DNA from: an uncultured bacterium
GTDB lineage: Bacteria; Krumholzibacteriota; Krumholzibacteriia; Krumholzibacteriales; CAZTHK01
Assembly (NCBI GenBank): GCA_964613215.1
Contig: CAZTHK010000011.1
Span: 61,297 to 125,296, forward strand
Reading direction: 5' to 3'
Length of the DNA stretch: 64,000 nucleotides
Shown here: positions 3,884 through 62,378 of the stretch, in pieces
How positions within the stretch are numbered: the first letter of the stretch is position 1
How the letters are laid out: every line of letters begins with the position of its first letter
Program-made: the position numbers and the translations under genes
The notes under the pieces: generated by a model
Seen by the model: only the letters and a program-made list of their open reading frames with translations
The model's database searches: none
What the model was told of the DNA's origin: nothing

Positions 3884-6325
3884 TCACCGGATCAATACCA
3901 TCTTCCTTCTCTGCATGAACTCCCCCGCCCTGATAGAGTAGAAATATACTCCGCTGGCCACCGCTTTGCCGCCGGTGTCTGTTCCCTTCCAGTCTATGCT
4001 GTAACTGCCCGCATCACGTGTTCCATCCAGGAGAATGCTTACCAGCCGGCCCGATGCGTCATAGACCGCTATGCGTACGCGGCCGGATCTTTCCAGGTCG
4101 AATCTAATGGTGGTAGACGGATTAAAGGGATTGGGGTAATTCTGTTTCAGGCAATTCTTCCACGAGACCTCTGGTGTGTCCCCTCCGGTAATATCCTCCG
4201 GCGCCAGCAATGCGAACCCGCTCTCGTTTCCATGGATGTCCACTGCCGCCACCTTGTAATAGTATATCTCATCCCATCTCCAGCCTGCATCGAAAAGAGC
4301 GGTATCACACGGGGAATCAATGAAATTACCGGGTCCGGGCTGAAATCCCGAGGTGGTCCCCCGGTAGACGTTGTAGCAGGCCAGGTCCGGTTCGTTATTG
4401 GGCTCCCAGCTGAGCTGGAGTCCCTCCGGCTGGTAGCTCTGCTCACCGGCCAGGCCAAGCGGCGGGCAGGGGGATAGATTATCCACCGAGTATCCGCTGT
4501 CCGGATCCGAAGTCCAGAAAAGCGCCGGATCATCGGTGTGAGCTATCACCTGGAAGTAATGATAATCCTGGCAGACTGAGGTGGAGTCGAACAGGGTCTC
4601 CACTATCATGGAGTAATGCTCCAGGCGGTAAGCCTCCTGGGTGGAAACCAGCATCCAGTAGTAGGGCTCACCGTTTAAAAAGCCGTGACGCAGAAGGGGG
4701 ATTTCCTCCCTCCCTGCTTCTTCCCCGGCAACCGCTTCAGAGGGGCTTCGAACCGCGAAACCTCCCTCACGGATAACAGCCTGCGCCTGCTCGGTCTCCA
4801 GCGCCCTCCAGACGGTATAACTGCTCACCTCTCCCCTCTGGTAGTCGAACAGGGTTGCATCCCAGGCCAGGTTAACACAGCCACCTTCGTCTCCCGGTAC
4901 ATCTTCCACCGAATGGATAACCGGCGGGAAAGAACCGGCCTCCCCGTTAATGCCGATCTGCTGACAGTATACATCATCATCGTTGTCCCGTTTATCGAAC
5001 CATGTAATAAATGCTCCACCTGCTCCATCCGTTGATATCTGGACCCGTTTCTGGTCCTGGGCCGCCCTGCATACCGGCAGCCCGTTTACATCCCAGAGAG
5101 CCGTCCCCGAAACATCAAACCGCTGTGCATAAATATCATACTCATAGGTCCGGAAATCATACCAGGTGATAATAGCCCCTTCGTCTCCGTCGGTTGTTAT
5201 CTCAGGCCCATCCTGGTCATAAGTTGCCGCGCAGACCGCTACTCCATCTGCAGTCCACTGCACTGACCCGGAAGCATCCACCCGCTGGGCGAATATATCC
5301 GTGTCGCTCCCCCGGTTATCCTCCCAGGTAATAATCGCGCCCCCGGTACCGTCAGGCACTATCTCCGGGGCGTACTGGTCATCCGGTGCATTGCAGACAG
5401 CCACTCCGCCCACACTCCACTGAACCGTACCAAACACATCGATGCGCTGAGCATATATATCATAGTGAGTGCCCCGTATGCCATACCATGCAACTATCGC
5501 TCCCCCCGCACCATCGGACGCTATGCTGGGCAAAAACTGGTCTCCCGCAACAGAACAGAGGTCCACCCCGTCTGCGGTCCACTGGGTTACTCCCGAAGCA
5601 TCTATCTGCTGAGCATATATGTCATAATCTATCCCACGGTAATCTTCCCAGGTTATTATGGCACCTCCCTCTCCATCCGGGATTATTTCAGGGGAGTACT
5701 GGTCCCCCGCCGCCGCGCAGATTGCCACCCCGTTTGCAGTCCACAGGACCGAACCGGAAGCGTCTACACGCTGGACATATATATCATAGTCACTGCCCCG
5801 GAAATCCTCCCAGACCACGATGGTTCCACCCCCCCCGTCGCTGACCAGACGCGGATTCTCCTGCTGGCCCGTTGCAGTGCAGAGGGCAACCCCGTTGACA
5901 GCCCACAGCGCAGCCCCCGACGCATCTATACGGCCTGTATATATGTCATAGTTGCCGTTGCGCAGATCTTCCCATGCTACTACAGCTCCTCCTGCTCCGT
6001 CGGATGCTACTTCGGGGTAGTACTGGTCTCCCGATGCCGCACATAGAGAGATTCCACCGGTAGCCCAGCGGACTGCTCCGGTAATATCTATACTTTGAGT
6101 ATAGATATCAAAATCACTGCCCCGGCTATCATACCAGGCGATGATTGCTCCATCCTCTCCGTCGTATGCTATTCTGGGCCTGTTCTGAGAACCCGGTTCC
6201 GTGCAGACAGGCACTCCATCCTCGTTCCACCAGGCCCGAAGTGATGGCGAAGCCAGGATGAACAGGCAGATCAGTAGCGGAAGAGACACTTTAGCAAATT
6301 TGTACATAGCTGTTTCTCCTTTCAA
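3884..6325 (-). CDS. secreted repeat protein with a T9SS C-terminal sorting domain
   Basis: N-terminal signal peptide, then 8 tandem ~47-aa repeats (G-DQ-P-I-DG-GGAI-W-D-R-G-DIYAQR-D-SG-W-GV-C), an FN3-like segment, and a C-terminus ...NPSTTIRFDLERSGRVRIAVYDASGRLVSILLDG...GVYFYSIRAGEF.. matching the Por-secretion (TIGR04183-type) sorting tail. Confidence 0.8.
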   Translation of the reverse strand: MKGETAMYKFAKVSLPLLICLFILASPSLRAWWNEDGVPVCTEPGSQNRPRIAYDGEDGAIIAWYDSRGSDFDIYTQSIDITGAVRWATGGISLCAASGDQYYPEVASDGAGGAVVAWEDLRNGNYDIYTGRIDASGAALWAVNGVALCTATGQQENPRLVSDGGGGTIVVWEDFRGSDYDIYVQRVDASGSVLWTANGVAICAAAGDQYSPEIIPDGEGGAIITWEDYRGIDYDIYAQQIDASGVTQWTADGVDLCSVAGDQFLPSIASDGAGGAIVAWYGIRGTHYDIYAQRIDVFGTVQWSVGGVAVCNAPDDQYAPEIVPDGTGGAIITWEDNRGSDTDIFAQRVDASGSVQWTADGVAVCAATYDQDGPEITTDGDEGAIITWYDFRTYEYDIYAQRFDVSGTALWDVNGLPVCRAAQDQKRVQISTDGAGGAFITWFDKRDNDDDVYCQQIGINGEAGSFPPVIHSVEDVPGDEGGCVNLAWDATLFDYQRGEVSSYTVWRALETEQAQAVIREGGFAVRSPSEAVAGEEAGREEIPLLRHGFLNGEPYYWMLVSTQEAYRLEHYSMIVETLFDSTSVCQDYHYFQVIAHTDDPALFWTSDPDSGYSVDNLSPCPPLGLAGEQSYQPEGLQLSWEPNNEPDLACYNVYRGTTSGFQPGPGNFIDSPCDTALFDAGWRWDEIYYYKVAAVDIHGNESGFALLAPEDITGGDTPEVSWKNCLKQNYPNPFNPSTTIRFDLERSGRVRIAVYDASGRLVSILLDGTRDAGSYSIDWKGTDTGGKAVASGVYFYSIRAGEFMQRRKMVLIR
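5035..6190 (-). repeat. tandem ~141-bp (47-codon) coding repeats, 8 copies
   Basis: Periodic DIY(A/V)QR...SG..W...GV..C units in the translation of the 3884..6325 ORF. Confidence 0.7.
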
Positions 6326-28753: not shown

Positions 28754-30163
28754 TTATCTCTTTGCCCAGGATATCACACTCTCTGACAGGGGATACTTGT
28801 ACTTACGCATCTTGAACTCAGCACCTTCCATACCCTCCACCACTTTCCGGCAGGCCTCTATATCCACATCCCCGTAATCCACCGCCGTAACAGTGCATTC
28901 CATGGAGGAAACAGCCGATTTCCGGATAAAATCCATTACCGATCTGTAGGCTTCCCTTCCCCTGTTCGGCCGGCAAACCCTCACATACTTATCCTCGTTT
29001 TCCGCATTCATGCTTATTGATATCCGGTCGAACACACTTTCCAGCTGTGGAACAATATTTCTGCCGTGAATAAGGTTCCCCTGGCCATTGGTATTCAGCC
29101 TCAACGGAACCCCCAGGCTTTTAAGCTGCACTGCGGTCTCAAGTATCTCTCCTATTCTGGTGCTGGGTTCTCCGTAACCACAGAATACCACCTCTGATAC
29201 ATCCCTCCTTTCGGCCTCCTTCCTGGTCTCAGAGACCATCTCTTCAACAGAGGGCTCCTCTTCCAGCTTGAGATTGTAACCGTAGAGAAACTTGTCTCTC
29301 CTGCCATAGGCACAGAATGAACAGTTGTTCACACAGTAATTGGTGACATTTATATATAGGTTGCCCTTGAGAATGTATGCCACCGCGGGCGGGATGTGCT
29401 GGTCTCCGTAGAACAGGCGCCGGTAATTAACCTCCGAGGCCCTCTCTATATCCTCTGTATCCACTCCCATCAGATCAGCCATCTTCCGGGCCACCAGCCT
29501 TACATAGGATGGTTCATTCCTCTTTCCCCGGTAAGGTTCCGGAGGAAGATAGGGACAGTCCGTCTCCAGCAGGAAGGCATTGGAGGGAAGCCGGGATACA
29601 GCCTCCGGCAGGCGTGAATTCCTGTAGGTGACCGGACCGCCTATTCCCACCAGGAATCCCATATCTATTATTTCCTTCAGCCTCTTCTCCCCCCCGGAGA
29701 AGGCGTGCATCACTCCCCCTATCTCTCTTCCCCCCTCCCTTCTGAGAATATCGATAACATCATCGAAGGCTTCCCTGCTGTGTATAACTATGGGCTTCTT
29801 GAAATATACCGCTATGGCGATCTGTTTCTTGAATACCATCCTCTGATCTTCCCTGCCGGAGAGATCCCGGTAGTAGTCCAGCCCGGTCTCTCCCACTCCC
29901 AGTATCTTCCTGCGCAGGAGCAGTTTCTTTATCTTCTCCTCTATCTCCGGAGTCCAGGTTTTGGCCTCATGGGGATGTATCCCCACCGTCCCCCTTATCA
30001 TTTCATAATTATCGGCAAGAGCTACCGTCTCATCGATGGTTGATGAATCTATGCTGATATTTAATATCTCCCCCACCCCCGCATCTGCAGCCCGCTTCAA
30101 AACCTCTTCCAGATCTCCTTCGAACCGGGGAAGATTAAGATGGGCATGACTGTCAATCAGCAT
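28754..30163 (-). CDS. TatD-family metal-dependent hydrolase fused to a C-terminal radical-SAM domain
   Basis: N-terminal ~260 aa are TatD (MLIDSHAHLNLP...GVGETGLDYY...VIHSREA...). The C-terminal ~200 aa contain CVNNCSFCAY, a CX3CX2C radical-SAM cluster motif, and resemble small TatD-associated rSAM proteins. Confidence 0.8.
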   Translation of the reverse strand: MLIDSHAHLNLPRFEGDLEEVLKRAADAGVGEILNISIDSSTIDETVALADNYEMIRGTVGIHPHEAKTWTPEIEEKIKKLLLRRKILGVGETGLDYYRDLSGREDQRMVFKKQIAIAVYFKKPIVIHSREAFDDVIDILRREGGREIGGVMHAFSGGEKRLKEIIDMGFLVGIGGPVTYRNSRLPEAVSRLPSNAFLLETDCPYLPPEPYRGKRNEPSYVRLVARKMADLMGVDTEDIERASEVNYRRLFYGDQHIPPAVAYILKGNLYINVTNYCVNNCSFCAYGRRDKFLYGYNLKLEEEPSVEEMVSETRKEAERRDVSEVVFCGYGEPSTRIGEILETAVQLKSLGVPLRLNTNGQGNLIHGRNIVPQLESVFDRISISMNAENEDKYVRVCRPNRGREAYRSVMDFIRKSAVSSMECTVTAVDYGDVDIEACRKVVEGMEGAEFKMRKYKYPLSESVISWAKR

Positions 30164-30167
30164 TGGT

Positions 30168-31715
30168 TCATTCCCCCTTCAGTTCTTCCGGGATATCCTT
30201 GATGCGGGGAAACAACGGCTCGGGCCTCTGTAATCCCTCCGCCCCCACCTCCCGGGGAGGCAGCTGATCCATCTCCATCCCCTCCTCCACTCCCAGCCCT
30301 GTGAGCATCGCCTCCATCTTAACCGGCATAAAGGGCATAAGCACATGCCCTGTAATATGCAATACCGCCAGCAATTCGGCGAAAACATCGCTCAGCTGAT
30401 CCCGTCGCCTCTCATCCCCGGCCATTTCCCAGGGTTTATTCTCCTCTATAAATTTATTGGCCCTCTGTATCACTGGCCACCATGAGTTCAGAGCTACGGA
30501 AAATTTCAAATTATCCATATGTTCACGATAATCTTCCAATGCCTTCAGGACCTCGCCGTATAGGACTGATCTTTCTCCGAACACAGCGGTTTCAACATTT
30601 CCTTCAAGATACTTGCCTATCATAGAGGTGGTCCTGCTGAACAGATTGCCCAGTTCATTGGCCAGATCGGAGTTGTACCGGTCCACCAGGCGGTTGATGG
30701 AAATATCGCTGTCCTTATCGAAGGGAACCTCCCTCAACAGAAGATAGCGCAATCCGTCCGGCCCGAAGGTATCCTTCATCACCCCGGGGTCCAGTATGTT
30801 GCCTCTGGTCTTGCTCATCTTTTCTCCCGACAGGGAGATGAATCCATGGGCAAATATGCTCCGGGGCAGCTCCACCCCGCCCGCCATCAGCATGGCCGGC
30901 CATATAATGCAGTGAAACCTGGTAATATCCTTGCCTATTACGTGAACATCAGCCGGCCAGTAGCGGTCAAAAAGATCCGTCTTTTCTCCCCCGTAACCCA
31001 GAGCGGATATGTAATTTATCAGGGCATCGAACCACACGTATATTACATGGGAGTCATCGCCCGGGATGGGTATCCCCCATCTCTTTCCAGCCCGTGACAC
31101 CGAGATATCCTCCAGCCCGCTCTCTATAACATTTACAATTTCGTTTTCCCTTATTACCGGCCGGATGAATCCCGGATTTGCCCTGATATGCCGGAGCAGA
31201 GGTTCTCCGAATTGGGAGAGTTTGAAGAAATAGTTCTCTTCACTCAGCGTCCTGGGCTTCTCCTTATGGCGGGGGCACAATCCCTCCTCCAGATCCTTTT
31301 CGCTGATATACTCCTCGCACGATTCACAGTAGAGCCCTTCATACTTCCCCCGGTATATGTATCCGTTCTCATTTATCTTCCTGAACAGATGCTCCACCGC
31401 TCTGATATGACGCTCTTCGGAAGTATGGATAAAATCATCGCAGGAGATATTCAGGTTTTTCCAGATGGTCCTGAATTCCCCGGACATATCCCGGCAGTAA
31501 TCAAGCGTATCCATGTTCCGGCGGTTGGCTTCCTTCTCCACATTGGTGCTGTGTTCGTCATTTCCCATCAGGAAATAGGTCCGGTATCCGCAAAGCCGCT
31601 TGTACCTGGCCAGGCAATCTGCACCTATCTTCTCATAGGCTGTTCCCAGATGCGGTTTCTGGTTTACATAATCTATGGCAGTAGTTATGTAAAATTTCTC
31701 ATCCTCCATTATCAT
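30168..31715 (-). CDS. metG: methionine--tRNA ligase (short form)
   Basis: KMSKTRGN motif plus Zn-knuckle cysteines (CESCEEY...CPRHK). The HIGH-region reads KPHLGTAY. Confidence 0.9.
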   Translation of the reverse strand: MIMEDEKFYITTAIDYVNQKPHLGTAYEKIGADCLARYKRLCGYRTYFLMGNDEHSTNVEKEANRRNMDTLDYCRDMSGEFRTIWKNLNISCDDFIHTSEERHIRAVEHLFRKINENGYIYRGKYEGLYCESCEEYISEKDLEEGLCPRHKEKPRTLSEENYFFKLSQFGEPLLRHIRANPGFIRPVIRENEIVNVIESGLEDISVSRAGKRWGIPIPGDDSHVIYVWFDALINYISALGYGGEKTDLFDRYWPADVHVIGKDITRFHCIIWPAMLMAGGVELPRSIFAHGFISLSGEKMSKTRGNILDPGVMKDTFGPDGLRYLLLREVPFDKDSDISINRLVDRYNSDLANELGNLFSRTTSMIGKYLEGNVETAVFGERSVLYGEVLKALEDYREHMDNLKFSVALNSWWPVIQRANKFIEENKPWEMAGDERRRDQLSDVFAELLAVLHITGHVLMPFMPVKMEAMLTGLGVEEGMEMDQLPPREVGAEGLQRPEPLFPRIKDIPEELKGE

Positions 31716-52008: not shown

Positions 52009-52956
52009 ATGAGAGGCGGTGTCGAAATGAAGGATAGAATGATAATTCACGATGAATTCAATTCATCGGCAAAAGTAGTTTTGAGCAATGGTGATTGTCT
52101 TAATTTACTAAAGAAAATCCCGGATGGTTCAATCCAACTAATTATTACTTCACCTCCATATAATATTGGAAAAGAATATGAAAGAAAATTAAAACTTGAA
52201 AAGTATATTGAACAACAAGAGAAAGTTATTGACGAATGCATAAGGGTTTTGTCTGATTCTGGCAGTATTTGCTGGCAGGTAGGGAATTACGTTGATAAAG
52301 GATCAATTATACCATTGGATACAATTCTTTATCCAATATTTGCAAAACGTAATTTAAAAATGAGAAACCGTATTATATGGCATTTTGGTCACGGTCTTCA
52401 TTGTAAAAACCGGTTTTCTGGAAGATATGAAACGGTAATTTGGTTTACAAAGAGTGATAATTACCATTTTAACCTGGATCCAGTACGTGTACCCCAGAAA
52501 TATCCCAAAAAGAAACATTTCAAAGGAGAAAAACGAGGACAATACTCTTGCAATCCTCTTGGCAAGAATCCCAGTGACGTATGGATGATTCCCAATGTAA
52601 AGAGCAATCATGTTGAAAAAACGATACATCCATGTCAATTCCCTGTTGAATTAATTGAACGGTTTGTTCTGTCTATGACAAAGGAAGAAGATTGGGTGTT
52701 TGATCCTTTCGTTGGAACTGGAACTTCGATTATTGCTGCTATTCGCCATAACAGAAGAGGCGCGGGCGCAGAAACTGAAGACAAATATGTCAAATTAGCC
52801 AGGAAAAGGATAAATATGGAGATGGATGGGGTTCTTCGAACACGCCCCATGAATAAACCAATCTATGATCCAAATAGTAGTGAAAACAGCTTGAATAGGC
52901 ACTGCCAGGAAAGAAGAAACGAAAACAAACAATTGCATCTGTTGGAGAGTGAATAG
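52009..52956 (+). CDS. DNA methyltransferase, beta-class (N6-adenine or N4-cytosine)
   Basis: Motif IV SPPY lies near the N-terminus and motif I DPFVGTGTS near the C-terminus, the circular permutation typical of beta-class amino-MTases. The gene is about 38% GC. Confidence 0.85.
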   Translation: MRGGVEMKDRMIIHDEFNSSAKVVLSNGDCLNLLKKIPDGSIQLIITSPPYNIGKEYERKLKLEKYIEQQEKVIDECIRVLSDSGSICWQVGNYVDKGSIIPLDTILYPIFAKRNLKMRNRIIWHFGHGLHCKNRFSGRYETVIWFTKSDNYHFNLDPVRVPQKYPKKKHFKGEKRGQYSCNPLGKNPSDVWMIPNVKSNHVEKTIHPCQFPVELIERFVLSMTKEEDWVFDPFVGTGTSIIAAIRHNRRGAGAETEDKYVKLARKRINMEMDGVLRTRPMNKPIYDPNSSENSLNRHCQERRNENKQLHLLESE

Positions 52957-52974: not shown

Positions 52975-53586
52975 GTGAAGATTATTGAAACATATTCGCA
53001 TTTAAATGGCCTTGAATATTTGATTGTTCATGAGAAAGAATTATGGAATCAGGTCAGGGAAGTTATAGCATCTGTAGATGCTGAAAAATGTAAGACTAAA
53101 AAATCGAAAGAAAAAACTATGAAGGGCAAAATGTTATACAGCCCAGCAGATATGAACGCAGAATTTAAACGGTTATTACTGAAATCAGAATGGCGTGAAA
53201 GCAGGGTCTCTTACTGGGTAACAAAAGACTCTAAACTTATCAGAAAAACACTTTCTCTTGATACTAACCAGCAAAAGAAAGAAATTGAAGCAAGTGGGCA
53301 AACTCCTATTTATAGTTATAATCAGACGGACTTTATTAGGAACAGAGTAGCGATCGAAGTGCAATTCGGGAAATATGCTTTCGTTGCTTATGATTTATTT
53401 GTGAAACACCTGGCTTTTTATGTAGGAAACAAAATTGATGTTGGAATTGAAATACTACCCATGAAATCTCTTCAATTGGAGATGAGTTCGGGTGTTCCCT
53501 ATTATGAAGGGGAACTTTACAATGTAATTAGGCAGGGCAGAGGTGTACCAGCAGTGCCCTTAGTAATCATTGGAATAGAACCATAA
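52975..53586 (+). CDS. type IIP restriction endonuclease of the BglII/BamHI family
   Basis: 203 aa. The N-terminus MKIIETYSHLNGLEYL and the catalytic region VAIEVQFGKYAF (an E-x-Q arrangement as in BglII) together with GIEILPMKSLQLEMSS (BamHI-like) recall those enzymes. It lies immediately downstream of the MTase. Confidence 0.65.
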   Translation: MKIIETYSHLNGLEYLIVHEKELWNQVREVIASVDAEKCKTKKSKEKTMKGKMLYSPADMNAEFKRLLLKSEWRESRVSYWVTKDSKLIRKTLSLDTNQQKKEIEASGQTPIYSYNQTDFIRNRVAIEVQFGKYAFVAYDLFVKHLAFYVGNKIDVGIEILPMKSLQLEMSSGVPYYEGELYNVIRQGRGVPAVPLVIIGIEP

Positions 53587-55898: not shown

Positions 55899-55914
55899 CG
55901 ATAATAATTATTGC
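55899..55914. promoter_or_regulatory. candidate Fur/PerR-family operator (ATAAT-n-ATTAT inverted repeat) in the pckG / seleno-prx divergent promoter region
   Basis: cgATAATaATTATtgc resembles the 7-1-7 PerR/Fur box core. It lies ~170 nt upstream of the prx ATG. A direct repeat ttattgca(t/a)aaa is also present at ~55838 and ~55906. Confidence 0.3.
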
Positions 55915-56084
55915 AAAAAATCCAGGGAGGTCTATAATCAGAATCCCTGAGGGAGAAAGGAGGCTCGAATATGCCTGAAGAATTCGATGCCAGTTGCGCC
56001 AGGCCTACCGGAGGCCCGGTGGGTGAGGCGGAGAAACCGGAAAAACAGGAGAAAGAGAAAGCCGAGAAGAAGAAGGAGGCCGCC

Positions 56085-56693
56085 ATGATCAAGGTTGGTC
56101 AGAAAGCCCCTGATTTCATTGCTCCGGCATATCATCAGGGCAAATTCGTAAATGTTAAACTTTCCGAATATCTGGGCAAATGGGTACTGGTCTGTTTCTA
56201 CCCGGGTGATTTTACCTTTGTTTGAGCAACGGAAGTTTCGGCAGTTGCCGAAAAGTATTCCGAATTGCAGGAACTGGGAGTAGAGGTTCTTTCTGTCAGT
56301 GTGGACAGCGTTTTCGTACATAAGATGTGGGATGAAAACGAGCTCTCCAGGATGGTGGAGGGAGGCATTCCATTCCCCATGCTGTCCGACGGCGGCGGAA
56401 AGGTGGGCAGTATCTACGGCATTTATGATGAAAATGCGGGAACGGAAACAAGGGGACGGTTCATTATAGACCCCGACGGATTAATTCAGGGCTTTGAAGT
56501 TCTGACCCCGCCGGTAGGCAGAAATGTCGGCGAAACCCTCAGGCAGATTCAGGCATTTCAACTGGTTAGAAAAAGCAAGGGGAAGGAAGCCACACCTTCC
56601 GGATGGAAACCGGGCAAGAAAACACTCAAGCCCGGGCCCGGCCTGGTGGGCAATGTCTGGAAGGAATGGAAGACAGATATGGCCTTCGATTAA
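56085..56693 (+). CDS. selenocysteine-containing peroxiredoxin (AhpC/Prx1 subfamily, in-frame TGA at 56223-56225 read as Sec, no resolving Cys)
   Basis: A single frame reads [11 protein letters not shown]...[40 protein letters not shown]...[16 protein letters not shown]... This aligns with AhpC FTFVCPTE, with TGA exactly at the peroxidatic Cys. The ORF track splits the gene into 55971..56225 and 56265..56693, both in the same frame. An AGGAGG RBS lies 5 nt before ATG 56085. A SECIS-like hairpin lies 11 nt after the TGA. Confidence 0.75.
56230..56261 (+). promoter_or_regulatory. bacterial SECIS-like hairpin
   Basis: cggaa-g-TTTCGGC-aguu-GCCGAAA-agta-ttccg has a 7-bp upper stem and a 4-nt apical loop containing GU at ~20 nt downstream of the UGA, plus a 5-bp lower stem with an internal loop. 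Confidence 0.55.
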
Positions 56694-56833
56694 ATTTATC
56701 TTAAAAGAAAGAGTGCACTTTCTAATCAGAGTGTTCTTATTCAACAGGTATGCACAAGGACCGTATTGTAACCTTAACCCGGAAAGCTGATGATCCGGAT
56801 TGAATGGGTTCGATCCCTGATTATGAATAAATA

Positions 56834-56867
56834 AAATCTCCCCGGTGTCGTCCCGGGGAGATTTTTC
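56834..56867 (+). terminator. rho-independent terminator downstream of the peroxiredoxin gene
   Basis: aaATCTCCCCGGtgtcgtcCCGGGGAGATttttt forms a 10-12 bp stem followed by a T5 run. Confidence 0.75.
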
Positions 56868-57261
56868 TGAACTTAATCCCTACAGAATCGGCGTGCCTAC
56901 ACTCTGACGGCATGCCTGTGCTCATAACAAGTTAAGAATCCTGCACTCCAATCCGGCCGTGCCGCTGGTTTTTCCGGATAATCCATAAGTGCAGCCGCCA
57001 TCGCTGCTGAGTGCAGGCTGATTGAAGAATCAGCCATAGTACCCATTTCCCTTCCAGCCGCCTGATAACATCCAAACAGTATCAGGCTGTACCGGCAAGA
57101 CATTATCATTGTCTTTCTGCCATGCGGGAACGAGTTTATGAATTAACCGGGTTACCCCGCTTACACTCCTATGCTTTATGTAAGTGCCTGCATTCCGCCA
57201 GTGCCTTACCAGCAGGGAACAGAGGGCTTCTAATACCATTAAGCCACAGATGGATCGAGTC

Positions 57262-57471
57262 TTACTGCTGATACTTGAATGACAGCTTTATCTTGGCCCG
57301 GTACTGGACTATCTTCCCTTCCTCTATATGCATATCCAGTTTTTCCACCTCGGCGATTCTCAGATCCCTGAGATTTTTTCCGGCAGCCTCCACCGCGTTT
57401 GCCGCGGCCTTTTCCCACGAATCAGGACTGGTGCCAACCAGCTCGATTACCTTGTAGGTACTATCTGGCAT
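57262..57471 (-). CDS. dodecin (flavin-binding dodecameric protein)
   Basis: 69 aa MPDSTYKVIELVGTSPDSWEKAAANAVEAAGKNLRDLRIAEVEKLDMHIEEGKIVQYRAKIKLSFKY, a dodecin-family signature. An AAAGGAGAG RBS precedes it. The listed ORF 57262..57600 carries an unsupported N-terminal extension. Confidence 0.75.
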   Translation of the reverse strand: MPDSTYKVIELVGTSPDSWEKAAANAVEAAGKNLRDLRIAEVEKLDMHIEEGKIVQYRAKIKLSFKYQQ

Positions 57472-57633
57472 AATTATCTCTCCTTTCGCTGACTCGGTTA
57501 ACAGAAAACATCTCTCTCTTCGACTCCTGAAACTACAGAGTAAGCCTTTCCGGCCAAAAAGAACAGCAAAAAAGTTCTTCTTATCCGGAGTCCGGAGCAC
57601 GCCGGCAGAGCCAGCTCTGCACCGTACAGGATT

Positions 57634-58425
57634 CTATCTATAGACCACCACCGCAGCCGGCTCAACCACCCGGAAGGTGAATGACTCTACGAAGAACAGC
57701 TTCACCTTCCCGCTGTCGTGGCTCTCATAACCTATGGACAGATCAACTCCCAGAGTCAGGATGAAGTCTTCCCCCCTCTCCGATACGAGGAACATCTCCT
57801 TGACATGGGGTGTAGCTATGATCTCTCCGCCCAGGGTCTCTTCTATCTGCCTGCGGAGTGGATAGCCTTTGTGTTCGGCCAGGACGTTTTGCCACAGGGC
57901 CGTATTCATCACCGCCGTATATGGTCCCTCCACCGAGGCATTCTTCATCATGGTTACTCCGGAGGAGAGAGCTGCCAGTATCTTATCCGATCTCTTGGGG
58001 ATAGCCTGAACCTTATGAGCGGTCCCTTTTTTAAGCCCTTCGATGTTTGCCTTGTTGAGACCATAATATATGCTGTTCTCTTCAAACTGAGCCATTTCCT
58101 CCACCGCATCCTCCATGGGGCCCAGGTCTGCATCCACCGATCCCCGGCTGATACCATCCAGCTCTTCCACGCTCAACCGGAAGGGCATCTTTACCTCAAT
58201 CAGTGGTTGAATCTGATGGATCCTGCTCTCCGGTCCGTTCTTTTTGCTGGTCAGCTTTTCTGTCTTGCCCAGAGTCACAGCCCCGTAGTCCCACCCCTTC
58301 GGCTCGCCCACATCCACAAAGCGCCTGGCGGTCAGGGCCTGTCCAAATAACAACTTCGCCTGCTCGCTTATCTCCGCCCAGGCTTCATCGGAGACAGGAG
58401 CCATAGATTGTCGAAGTATATCCAT
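57634..58425 (-). CDS. family-1 encapsulin nanocompartment shell protein (HK97 fold)
   Basis: 263 aa. MDILRQSMAPVSDEAWAEISEQAKLLFGQALTARRFVDVGEPKGWDYGAV ... GPYTAVMNTALW ... KEMFLVSERGEDFILTLGVDLSIGYESHDSGKVKLFFVESFTFRVVEPAAVVV aligns along its whole length with the Thermotoga-type encapsulin (linocin M18 family). Confidence 0.85.
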   Translation of the reverse strand: MDILRQSMAPVSDEAWAEISEQAKLLFGQALTARRFVDVGEPKGWDYGAVTLGKTEKLTSKKNGPESRIHQIQPLIEVKMPFRLSVEELDGISRGSVDADLGPMEDAVEEMAQFEENSIYYGLNKANIEGLKKGTAHKVQAIPKRSDKILAALSSGVTMMKNASVEGPYTAVMNTALWQNVLAEHKGYPLRRQIEETLGGEIIATPHVKEMFLVSERGEDFILTLGVDLSIGYESHDSGKVKLFFVESFTFRVVEPAAVVVYR

Positions 58426-58448
58426 AGTTTACTCCTTTTCTTTCCTGT

Positions 58449-58802
58449 TTACAGCTTTCCGATGCCCAGATCGGATCCGCGGGAACTGTGATTGTTTCCT
58501 TCTTCCTCCTCTTCACCCTCCTCAATGGATGTAATATCCTGCTGGGTAAAAAGATAATCCCGCAGGTTCTCATCCCAACCGTCCATATTTCTGCGCAGCC
58601 ACTCCAGAAGCATGCTGGCATGCTCCATCTCCTCCTCCATATTATGAAGCAGAATCTTCTTAAGCTCCGCCCTGGCTGTAACATCGGCACGCTGCCTGTA
58701 CCAGTCGATAGCTTCGATCTCCTCCTTGAGGCTGTTGAGGGCCCTGGTGTAATCCTTACATTCCTCGCTCAATTCGTTCTCGGCTTCGTGATAATCCGGC
58801 AT
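58449..58802 (-). CDS. encapsulated ferritin-like cargo protein (EncFtn) with a C-terminal encapsulin targeting peptide
   Basis: IEAIDWYRQRADVT...ELKKILLHNMEEEMEHASMLLEWLRRN is the EncFtn Glu/His ferroxidase motif. An acidic linker precedes the terminal SRGSDLGIGKL, which matches the GSLGIGSL-type cargo-loading peptide. It lies 23 nt upstream of the shell gene. Confidence 0.8.
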   Translation of the reverse strand: MPDYHEAENELSEECKDYTRALNSLKEEIEAIDWYRQRADVTARAELKKILLHNMEEEMEHASMLLEWLRRNMDGWDENLRDYLFTQQDITSIEEGEEEEEGNNHSSRGSDLGIGKL

Positions 58803-60209: not shown

Positions 60210-62378
60210 TCAGTGTATGGTCATCTCATCCAGCAGCTTTTTGGCACCACTGAACCTGTCCACCACGAAGAGGATGTACCTGGAATCGACACTTATACAC
60301 CTGGTAAGATCCTCATCGAAGATGTAATCTGCAGATATGCTCTCGTAGTTACCGTCGAAGGCAGCTCCGATAACCTCTCCCCGGGCATTCATGATGGGGC
60401 TTCCCGAGTTTCCCCCGGTAATATCGCAGGTGGAGAGGAAATCCACCGGAACATCCCCCAGATACGCATCCCGGTAATCTCCCAGTTCGTCTTCCTGGTA
60501 GAGATCCAGAACCCTGTCCGGACAGTCGAAGGGGTCCTCTCCGGTATGCTTCTCCACTACCCCGTCCAGAGAGGTGATATAGTCGTAATAGACCGCATCC
60601 CTTGGCCAGTAGCCTTTCACCGTTCCGTAGGTAAGCCGGATGGTTCCGTTAGCGTCCGGATAGAAGGCTCCTCCCTTCCATCTCCGGTAGGCCTCTATCA
60701 GCTCAGGTCTGATGGCGGAGATGGCGCCATTGAATTCCTTGTTGTTCTTCTCCAGTTCCTTTAATTCACTGTCCAGACTCAGGGCCAGCCGGATGAATCT
60801 GTCGTCAAGCCCCACCACCTTCTCACGGGACAGCTCAAAAATACGCAGTCGTTCCTCTTCCGTACCAAGCGAGGTGCCGGAGTAAAGATCATCTACAGCA
60901 TTTTCAATTCTGGACTGTATATCCTCCCCGCCGGCTGCTTCAAGCAGGCTGTCGAAAGCTTCGATCCTCTGCTCTGGGGGCAGCTCCCGGGACATCTCCA
61001 GGAAATATTTGAGCACCTCCCTGTCCACATGCTGGTCATAACTCATCTGCATGGTACTGAGTCCCCTCTTCAGACGGGGTATATCCCTCTCCATATATCC
61101 GGGATCCCTCTCCATATCCTCTTTGGTCTTCTCCTCGCTCCAGCGGACCAGGGTTGTTGCAGCCCTGAGCATCTGGCATCCGAACCTGCTGAATCTGAGC
61201 ACAAAGTTCTTATCCCGGTATTCCTCCTGTTTATCATAAAGATCAGCTATGGAGGGAAGGACATCTCCGTACTTCCTCTTCATTTCAGGATTTTCCTCCA
61301 GCCAGTCTGTGAAATCCTCCTCTTCCGATCTCTTCAGGGCCAGAAGGCCTGCTTTCTCGAATCCCTCCAGCATACCCTGGTAGTTCTTCATTGCATTGTT
61401 GAGCATCTGGTCGTAGGAGGCCACCTTGATGGCCACCGAAGGATTGGCCTCCGCCTCACTCTGGTACAGGTCTATCATCTCCCCGAATACCTTGATTCTC
61501 CTGGGATACATCCAGTTCTGATGATAGGCGATAGAGTAGGATGAGCGGTACCTCATGGTTCTTCCGGGATAGCCTATTATCATGGCAAAATCGTCTCTCT
61601 TCACTCCCCTGGAAGAAATGGCCAGATGTACCTCCGGCTGATAGGGGACATTATCCCCGGAATACTCCGCCGAACTTCCGTCCGGTGCCACGTAGGCGCG
61701 GAAGAAGGAGAAATCTCCGCCGTGCCGGGGCCACATCCAGTTGTCTATATCACCGCCGTAGTTGCCTATCGAACCGGGTGGAGCATATACTATCCTTACA
61801 TCCTTCATGGTAAAATAGGTGAACAGCTTGTACTGCATCCCCCCGTAGAAGCTGGCCACCCTGCACCTGACATCCCTGTCCTTCTCCGCCTCCCTGATAA
61901 TCTCCTTGTTTCGCTTTTCGATGGCCTGGTATCTCTCCGCACCGTCCAATCCCCCTGCCGCTTCCAGCACCCTCTCGGTTACATCCTCTATGGAGATAAG
62001 CACCGATGCCTCATAGCCCCTGGCAGGCACTTCCTTATCATAGCTGTCGGCATAGAAGCCTTCCCTCATGAAATTGCTCTCCACCGAACTGGCTCTCTGG
62101 AGGGCGGTAAAGGCAACATGATGATTGGTAAGTATCAGGCCCTTATCCGATACGAACGAACCGGTCCCTCCGCCCAGATCGACTATGCCGTATGCGATGC
62201 CCTCGCCATCAGGAGTGTATATCTCTTCCCGGGAAAGTTTGAGTCCAAGTTCCTTCATATCCTCTGCCAACCCCCTGTCCAGCTTATCCAGCTGCCACAT
62301 TCCCTCCTCGGCGAAGGTGGCGGCGGAGCCAACCAGGCCCACTACCACCAGCACGGCTAAGATCCTGGCTAAACGCAT
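60210..62378 (-). CDS. S46-family dipeptidyl-peptidase (DPP7/DPP11-like), secreted
   Basis: Signal peptide plus catalytic-triad contexts TNHHV (His), DFSFFRAY and GGNSGSP (Ser). 722 aa. Confidence 0.85.
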   Translation of the reverse strand: MRLARILAVLVVVGLVGSAATFAEEGMWQLDKLDRGLAEDMKELGLKLSREEIYTPDGEGIAYGIVDLGGGTGSFVSDKGLILTNHHVAFTALQRASSVESNFMREGFYADSYDKEVPARGYEASVLISIEDVTERVLEAAGGLDGAERYQAIEKRNKEIIREAEKDRDVRCRVASFYGGMQYKLFTYFTMKDVRIVYAPPGSIGNYGGDIDNWMWPRHGGDFSFFRAYVAPDGSSAEYSGDNVPYQPEVHLAISSRGVKRDDFAMIIGYPGRTMRYRSSYSIAYHQNWMYPRRIKVFGEMIDLYQSEAEANPSVAIKVASYDQMLNNAMKNYQGMLEGFEKAGLLALKRSEEEDFTDWLEENPEMKRKYGDVLPSIADLYDKQEEYRDKNFVLRFSRFGCQMLRAATTLVRWSEEKTKEDMERDPGYMERDIPRLKRGLSTMQMSYDQHVDREVLKYFLEMSRELPPEQRIEAFDSLLEAAGGEDIQSRIENAVDDLYSGTSLGTEEERLRIFELSREKVVGLDDRFIRLALSLDSELKELEKNNKEFNGAISAIRPELIEAYRRWKGGAFYPDANGTIRLTYGTVKGYWPRDAVYYDYITSLDGVVEKHTGEDPFDCPDRVLDLYQEDELGDYRDAYLGDVPVDFLSTCDITGGNSGSPIMNARGEVIGAAFDGNYESISADYIFDEDLTRCISVDSRYILFVVDRFSGAKKLLDEMTIH

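Follow-up and report, generated by a model that had tools for sequence, protein, structure and literature searches.

We studied prxU, a peroxiredoxin (Prx) gene interrupted by a single in-frame TGA, which an initial annotation made from the sequence alone had proposed to encode selenocysteine (Sec). The gene lies on the forward strand of a 64,000-nucleotide stretch of contig CAZTHK010000011.1 from an uncultured bacterium of the Krumholzibacteriales. We call this whole stretch the window, and all coordinates are positions within it. Relatives were collected in a scan of one genome per species (GTDB set), and from 569 tblastn-confirmed relatives we took the best 80, with 77-86% identity. We refer to these as the 80 loci; sets of 81 sequences are the 80 loci plus the window. 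The features of the locus are listed below, with SECIS standing for selenocysteine insertion sequence.

55911..55938, + strand: promoter-like site ahead of the first ATG, with TTGCAA and TATAAT separated by 16 nt; consensus match only, 10/12
55956..55963, + strand: Shine-Dalgarno 1, AAAGGAGG, 7 nt before ATG 55971; anti-Shine-Dalgarno duplex of -11.9 kcal/mol
55971..56084, + strand: N-terminal extension of 38 amino acids, with a conserved tail (Cys9 codon at 55995-55997) followed by a variable Lys/Glu-rich linker
56073..56079, + strand: Shine-Dalgarno 2, internal, AAGGAGG, 5 nt before ATG 56085; anti-Shine-Dalgarno duplex of -12.2 kcal/mol
56085..56693, + strand: peroxiredoxin domain, the short form of 202 amino acids, which with 55971-56084 makes the long form of 240 amino acids; from Pfam, NCBIfam NF040737 and the closest solved structures
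56193..56195, + strand: Cys75 codon (TGT), ten residues before Sec, a Phe in typical 2-Cys Prx; from alignment to 4fh8 and 5zte
56223..56225, + strand: UGA, predicted Sec codon, U85 of the long form and U47 of the short form, at the peroxidatic position of PxxxTxxU; from structure alignment and 80/80 loci
56230..56262, + strand: lower 5-bp extension of the hairpin, 56230-56234 with 56258-56262; folds in the window sequence, not conserved
56236..56253, + strand: predicted bacterial SECIS core, a 7-bp stem of 56236-56242 (UUUCGGC) with 56247-56253 (GCCGAAA) and the tetraloop AGUU at 56243-56246
56592..56594, + strand: Thr codon where typical 2-Cys Prx have their C-terminal resolving Cys; from residue-by-residue alignment to 4fh8 and 5zte
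56833..56865, no strand assigned: hairpin terminator with a 13-bp stem and A and T runs on its flanks, between prxU and the converging dodecin and encapsulin genes

Translated conceptually, 56085-56693 (+) yields an AhpC/Prx-like protein of 202 residues in which a single stop is internal. The sole in-frame stop of prxU is the TGA at 56223-56225, and the terminal stop is a TAA at 56691-56693, in agreement with the continuous AhpC-like frame first described. The ATG at 56085 did not hold up as the start of the gene: the frame is open further upstream to an ATG at 55971, where the conserved coding region begins, and 56085 is an internal ATG. Translation from 55971 gives a long form of 240 amino acids, and translation from 56085 a short form of 202. 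Three promoter-like sites were found compared with 2.0 expected, and the position of the one listed above would place both start codons on the transcript. The GC content of prxU (51.3%) matches that of the window (51.6%), and we therefore consider it a native gene.

Automated annotators had been expected to split or pseudogenise the gene. A mechanical list of open reading frames (ORFs) does cut prxU in two, into 55971-56225 (84 amino acids) and 56265-56693 (142 amino acids, with a TTG start), but the artefact found in public data is a different one, a TGA read as Trp (in 107/120 proteins, see below).

Protein family and catalytic position

The window protein belongs to the PrxU family, as had been suggested. 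It passes the equivalog cutoff of the NCBIfam model NF040737 (peroxi_PrxU; cutoff of 270 bits) with 417.6 bits for the 240-residue form and 393.6 bits for the 202-residue form, where Sec (U) was entered as C for profile scoring, and the longer form covers profile positions 2-233. The Pfam matches are AhpC-TSA (127.8 bits) and 1-cysPrx_C (31.6 bits). The next NCBIfam model, AhpC (TIGR03137), reaches 182 bits, under its cutoff of 272, which leaves the protein outside typical AhpC. The nearest database protein, P0001, is approximately 89% identical to the window protein, which is therefore a distinct orthologue.

Among solved structures, the best matches are to typical 2-Cys peroxiredoxins of Prx1/AhpC type (4fh8, 5zte, 1qmv and 1we0), with E-values from 1e-45 to 1e-41 over the whole Prx domain. 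In these alignments the TGA falls where the initial annotation had put it, on the peroxidatic residue, which in the solved wild-type Prx 4fh8 is the peroxidatic Cys; the PxxxTxxU motif here reads P-G-D-F-T-F-V-UGA. Towards the C-terminus, EATPSGW stands opposite the EVCPAGW of the solved 2-Cys Prx structures, with a Thr aligned to the Cys, such that the C-terminal resolving Cys is indeed replaced. The protein thus shares with typical 2-Cys Prx the active-site motif DFTFVxxTE and the C-terminal G-W-K-P-G region, and differs from them in the predicted Sec in place of the peroxidatic Cys, in the Thr in place of the resolving Cys, in scoring below the AhpC cutoff, in an extra N-terminal tail, and in a Cys instead of a Phe ten residues before the catalytic residue.

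Conservation of the TGA codon

The homologous codon is a TGA in 80/80 loci, and none of the 80 has a further in-frame stop. These loci represent at least 10 phyla, with sources in KSB1, Desulfobacterota (many), Cloacimonadota, Calditrichota, Spirochaetota, Acidobacteriota, Nitrospirae, Anaerolineae, Halanaerobiaceae and Krumholzibacteriia.

Database proteins present a different picture. In the 120 closest ones, the residue at the Sec site is W in 107 cases, C in 11, G in one and S in one. The W is a gene-caller artefact that results from translating the TGA by code 4 or 25 on short contigs, which we verified at the DNA level for P0001: the DNA beneath this best match (89% identity; locus L081, positions 69-785) reads TGA. 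The Cys entries are genuine, and a TGC or TGT was confirmed in the seven Cys-form loci that we fetched (L082-L088). Comparing related genomes for TGA versus TGC/TGT at this codon, a check proposed at the outset, thus returns TGA in all of the closest 80 and TGC/TGT in seven Cys forms. Cys-form homologues next to UGA forms make up the Sec/Cys pairing expected of a selenoprotein family. In one database protein, P0114, the catalytic residue is a Ser.

Purifying selection acts as strongly on the codons that follow the TGA as on those that precede it. For prxU compared with its 80 relatives, dN (nonsynonymous substitutions per site) is about 0.10 before and about 0.14 after the UGA, with dS (the synonymous counterpart) saturated, and dN/dS is about 0.04 before and about 0.06 after. 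The low dN/dS past the TGA argues that the region downstream of it is translated.

The predicted SECIS hairpin

The hairpin described initially, with a 7-bp stem and an AGUU loop eleven nt downstream of the TGA, is upheld by its fold, by its covariation and by comparison with published bacterial SECIS (bSECIS) elements. Its first nucleotide is the 11th after the TGA, and the spacing from UGA to loop is 17 nt. The 18-nt hairpin has a minimum free energy (MFE) of -8.8 kcal/mol (z = -4.3), with 0/200 shuffles as good, and the 40-nt stretch that includes the lower stem has -14.1 kcal/mol, again with 0/200 shuffles as good. For the bSECIS consensus we relied on a summary of the Zhang and Gladyshev 2005 model, in which the loop has 3-9 nt, the stem has 4-16 bp, a G occurs within the first two loop positions, the UGA-loop distance is 16-37 nt, and the MFE is at most -7.5 kcal/mol (PMC13188914). 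The prxU hairpin lies within every one of these limits, with a loop of 4 nt, a stem of 7 bp, a G at loop position 2, a distance of 17 nt and -8.8 kcal/mol.

To describe conservation of the hairpin we use an alignment, A1, of the 48 nt from the TGA onward in the window and the 80 loci, and pair numbers refer to A1. In the 7-bp stem, 98.9% of the cells are paired; four of the seven pairs are invariant, and the other three vary on both sides. Pair 18-27 occurs as AU (45), GC (31), GU (2) and UA (2), and pair 15-30 as UA (69), AU (5), CG (2) and GC (1). The covariation score of the stem is not reached by any of 500 shuffles, and when the 3' arm is slid as a control the pairing falls to 42-70%. The varying stem positions are third positions of Ser and Ala codons, and the changes are both synonymous and coordinated, as in TCG..GCC versus TCA..GCT or GCA GTT versus GCG GTC. 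In the loop, the G and the U at positions 2 and 3 (G22, U23) never vary, and positions 1 and 4 (21 and 24) covary perfectly (A-U in 63 sequences, G-C in 17). The resulting loop variant in 17 relatives, GGUC, is presumably also the loop sequence of E. coli fdhF.

The seven Cys forms have 4-6 of the seven stem pairs, and in three of the seven the G-U at loop positions 2-3 is gone as well. Their peptides are related but not identical to the E-V-S-A-V-A-E-K encoded here (for example EISAVADR, EVSALAAK and ELSAVASK). A related peptide kept along with a weakened hairpin indicates that the hairpin is tied to the UGA and not to the peptide.

The lower 5-bp stem, also part of the first description, is present in the window sequence but is not conserved in relatives: across 80 distinct sequences only 62% of its cells are paired, and pair 11-37 forms in 12/80. 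Compared with the archetype of bacterial SECIS elements, that of E. coli fdhF, the prxU hairpin is alike in lying 3' of the UGA inside the coding sequence, with a 7-bp stem and a 4-nt loop with G-U. It is unlike it in that we identified no bulged U and no conserved lower helix.

From these sequence comparisons we consider it very probable that the locus is prxU and that its product is a peroxiredoxin with a thioredoxin fold, from the Prx1/AhpC lineage, whose peroxidatic Cys is replaced by a SECIS-directed, UGA-encoded Sec.

An N-terminal Cys tail and two possible translation starts

The 38 residues between the two ATG codons are part of the family. The extension adds 24 bits to the PrxU model score and matches profile positions 2-34, and the N-terminal Cys tail thus lies within the NCBIfam PrxU profile. 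It is present in 79/80 loci, and the remaining locus is cut by the end of its contig. The tail Cys occurs in 80/80 sequences. In the codons of the tail motif, positions 1 and 2 are nearly invariant and the third positions have an entropy of about 1.8-2.0 bits; variation confined to third positions argues for selection at the protein level, and therefore for a tail that is translated. One Cys-form protein, P0088 (locus L087, positions 1001-1594), lacks the N-terminal tail, and its upstream frame is closed. P0088 (no tail) and P0114 (Ser) could be natural controls for the roles of the tail and of Sec.

Both start codons are preceded by conserved Shine-Dalgarno sequences. For Shine-Dalgarno 1, the mean duplex energy is -10.4 kcal/mol over 79 sequences, compared with an in-gene background of -3.6. 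For the internal Shine-Dalgarno 2, 80/81 sequences are at -7 kcal/mol or better, with a mean of -11.4 against the same background of -3.6. Of the 80 sequences scored, most have a GGAG or GAGG core that begins at -13 or -12 relative to the internal ATG (counts of 63 and 49), and such cores seldom occur in other parts of the linker. This ATG (56085) is itself invariant in 81/81, and the ATG-to-ATG spacing is mostly 36-39 codons among the loci. Two conserved in-frame initiation sites suggest that prxU may produce two isoforms, of 240 and 202 amino acids.

A phmmer search of the 38-residue extension against 1.84 billion representative proteins found the tail motif nowhere outside PrxU genes; the only matches are to pieces of PrxU genes and, in one case, to a repeat protein that is unrelated. 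Other families therefore give no clue to the function of the tail. We found no mention of the conserved N-terminal Cys tail or of the second start in the open-access literature searched.

Proposed resolution of the selenenic acid

In the mechanism that the established bacterial Sec pathway would predict for prxU, SelB-GTP carrying Sec-tRNA(Sec) would bind the apical loop of the hairpin during translation and bring Sec to the UGA as it occupies the A site of the ribosome. The U85 selenolate would then attack a hydroperoxide to form a selenenic acid, which a thiol would resolve before reduction by the thioredoxin system. The thioredoxin dependence carried in the family name comes from the NCBIfam annotation.

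Only two residues of the protein are Cys, namely C9 in the N-terminal tail and C75, and both are conserved in the family; the C75 column (C76 of P0086) is invariant in a 95-sequence alignment. Since there is no C-terminal resolving Cys, the resolver would be an external thiol or thioredoxin, or else C9 or C75. The initial annotation had called the protein a 1-Sec peroxiredoxin. Its premise, that the C-terminal resolving Cys is gone, is correct, but the label is unproven and we consider it premature, because either of the two family-conserved Cys could resolve the selenenic acid.

A tentative idea, which we hold to be possible but on balance doubtful, is that in the long form the PrxU-specific tail, on a flexible linker of about 20 residues, swings its invariant Cys into the active site, where an Se-S bond resolves the selenenic acid, and that the ratio of the two isoforms sets the recycling. 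If true, this would amount to a 2-Cys mechanism that works through an N-terminal arm. A known case of an N-terminally located resolving Cys is yeast Ahp1, of the Prx5 subfamily. If C9 does resolve the selenenic acid, PrxU would be like Ahp1 in having its resolving residue N-terminal to the catalytic one; it is unlike Ahp1 in belonging to another Prx subfamily, and in that the resolving Cys of Ahp1 is in the folded domain, whereas C9 is on a disordered tail.

Alternative explanations

Several observations weigh against the reading of prxU as a selenoprotein gene and against its proposed chemistry. Pfam and NCBIfam scans of approximately 45 ORFs identify no selA, selB or selD in the 64-kb window, and ARAGORN finds no tRNA in it, hence no tRNA-Sec. 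The Sec-decoding trait of the genome is thus a prediction, which is the main reason why we call the selenoprotein reading very probable and go no further. A scan for other long frames interrupted by one TGA gave 68 candidates and revealed no second selenoprotein gene in the window; prxU aside, in no case does a family-annotated gene pair with a coding continuation. The hairpin has no Rfam match, either at gathering thresholds over the whole window or at E <= 10 in 55900-56900. For the tail, the AlphaFold2 model of the Cys-form homologue P0086 (from the 95-sequence alignment) has a predicted local distance difference test score (pLDDT) above 90 in the core, about 52 in the N-terminal motif and below 50 in the linker; it places the Cys tail without confidence, and neither supports nor excludes docking of C9. 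Finally, Sec incorporation, peroxidase activity and the reductant are all things that we infer.

The absence of Sec machinery from the window would fit a pseudogene, a Cys-type Prx in which a TGC or TGT, one nucleotide away from TGA, mutated in this lineage and translation now ends after 84 (or 46) residues. Against such decay, all 80 closest loci from many phyla have the TGA, the frame has no other stop or frameshift, dN/dS is as low past the TGA (~0.06) as upstream (~0.04), and the hairpin is kept by compensatory changes; we find a pseudogene very improbable. The W found at the site in 107/120 of the closest database proteins, and the G in one, could instead be taken to mean that TGA encodes Trp or Gly throughout the organism (code 4 or 25) and that the residue is not Sec. 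But those W residues are gene-caller artefacts, with the DNA of P0001 reading TGA, the related loci come from standard-code phyla, and a Trp at the peroxidatic position would abolish catalysis by established Prx chemistry. As initially stated, other genes in the window use TGA as a normal stop: it is the terminal stop of 11/37 other family-annotated genes, which argues that there has been no code change, and we give a reassigned TGA next to no credence.

The hairpin by itself could be a mere by-product of the conserved peptide E-V-S-A-V-A-E-K, with no functional RNA element, given that the stem coincides with codons for a conserved run of amino acids and that four of its seven pairs never vary. 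The variable pairs, however, change in coordination at synonymous third positions, with 0/500 shuffles scoring as high, and the Cys forms keep a related peptide yet only 4-6 of the 7 pairs, which makes a by-product equally hard to believe. The pseudogene, the code change and the hairpin as a by-product of the peptide were rejected on the 80/80 TGA, the TGA stops in the window and the covariation. A last alternative is that the gene is a relic, in which the Sec trait has been lost from the genome while the UGA and the SECIS are still intact, so that the codon is terminated or weakly read through by a near-cognate tRNA (Trp or Cys). Our view of the Sec machinery is limited to 64 kb, and bacteria that have lost the Sec trait are on record (PMC1794560). 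A recent loss has to be assumed, however, since the hairpin has 7/7 pairs and a canonical loop and the coding sequence is not relaxed relative to the 80 relatives, and we take a relic to be quite unlikely. Site-specific recoding of the TGA, as claimed from the start, instead of a code change or a pseudogene, is where the family membership, the 80/80 TGA, the covariation, the weakened hairpin of the Cys forms and the purifying selection all point.

Relation to known selenoproteins

The selenocysteine peroxiredoxin PrxU is a known family that is already curated, and the selenoprotein call adds little: it is the correct identification of a member of this family. To our knowledge, the PrxU family appears in every bacterial selenoproteome survey. 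The short form, of 202 amino acids with U47, has what we take to be the size and Sec position of the purified protein of Eubacterium (Peptoclostridium) acidaminophilum, a Sec-containing PrxU that is said to have been biochemically characterised by Sohling et al. (2001, Biol Chem 382:979), reportedly with about 203 amino acids and Sec at position 47. Compared with the PrxU family of E. acidaminophilum (NF040737), the window protein is alike in passing the equivalog, in its predicted Sec in PxxxTxxU and in having no C-terminal resolving Cys, and it is unlike it in that its source is probably an FCB-group bacterium and not a relative of Clostridium, and in being a distinct orthologue.

Selenoperoxiredoxins had been described as rare, which does not agree with the 569 tblastn-confirmed relatives, the curated NCBIfam model, or the fifth place that the Prx selenoprotein family took when a survey of bacteria in 2006 ranked such families by number of genes (PMC1794560). 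Lists of prokaryotic selenoproteins with experimental verification include Prx (TxxU), with reference to Sohling et al. 2001 (PMC13188914, PMC9312934), and PrxU-type Prx are annotated in the Desulfococcus and Desulfotignum genomes (PMC5109826, PMC4046663).

The value of this locus for annotation is that ORF finders split prxU and that the Trp-translated entries (107/120) would make the enzyme look catalytically dead. The one scientific thread to follow from it is the family-wide N-terminal Cys tail together with the second conserved translation start, which bear on how the selenenic acid is recycled in a peroxiredoxin without the usual resolving Cys.

Genomic surroundings

Comparing window positions 50-64 kb with the 80 loci by tblastx, we found no conserved neighbours except one dodecin (locus L031), and when the flanking ORFs of the 80 loci were clustered no neighbour family occurred in more than nine loci. 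With no recurrent neighbour family, we found no conserved operon or reductase partner. In the window, an iron/oxidative-stress cluster at 56897-58802 (-) converges on prxU and shares with it the hairpin terminator at 56833-56865. Its genes are:

58449-58802, - strand: encapsulin-associated ferritin-like cargo
57634-58425, - strand: family-1 encapsulin shell
57262-57600, - strand: dodecin
56897-57109, - strand: small ORF

In the 80 loci this cluster does not accompany prxU, except for the dodecin of L031. Elsewhere in the window, a BglII-type restriction-modification pair (+) consists of an N6/N4 DNA methylase at 52009-52956 followed by a BglII-family endonuclease at 52975-53586. A beta-propeller protein with a type IX secretion system (T9SS) C-terminal sorting domain and a peptidase S46 are found at 3884-6325 (-) and 60210-62378 (-), respectively, and the two in combination point to a member of the FCB group. 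The window proteins that we looked up are singletons at 90% identity in a collection of 15 billion proteins, and the organism therefore has no close sequenced relative. We also observed a fused TatD-family nuclease and radical SAM protein (TIGR00010 + TIGR04038) at 28754-30163 (-), directly downstream of, and on the same strand as, the methionine--tRNA ligase gene (30168-31715).

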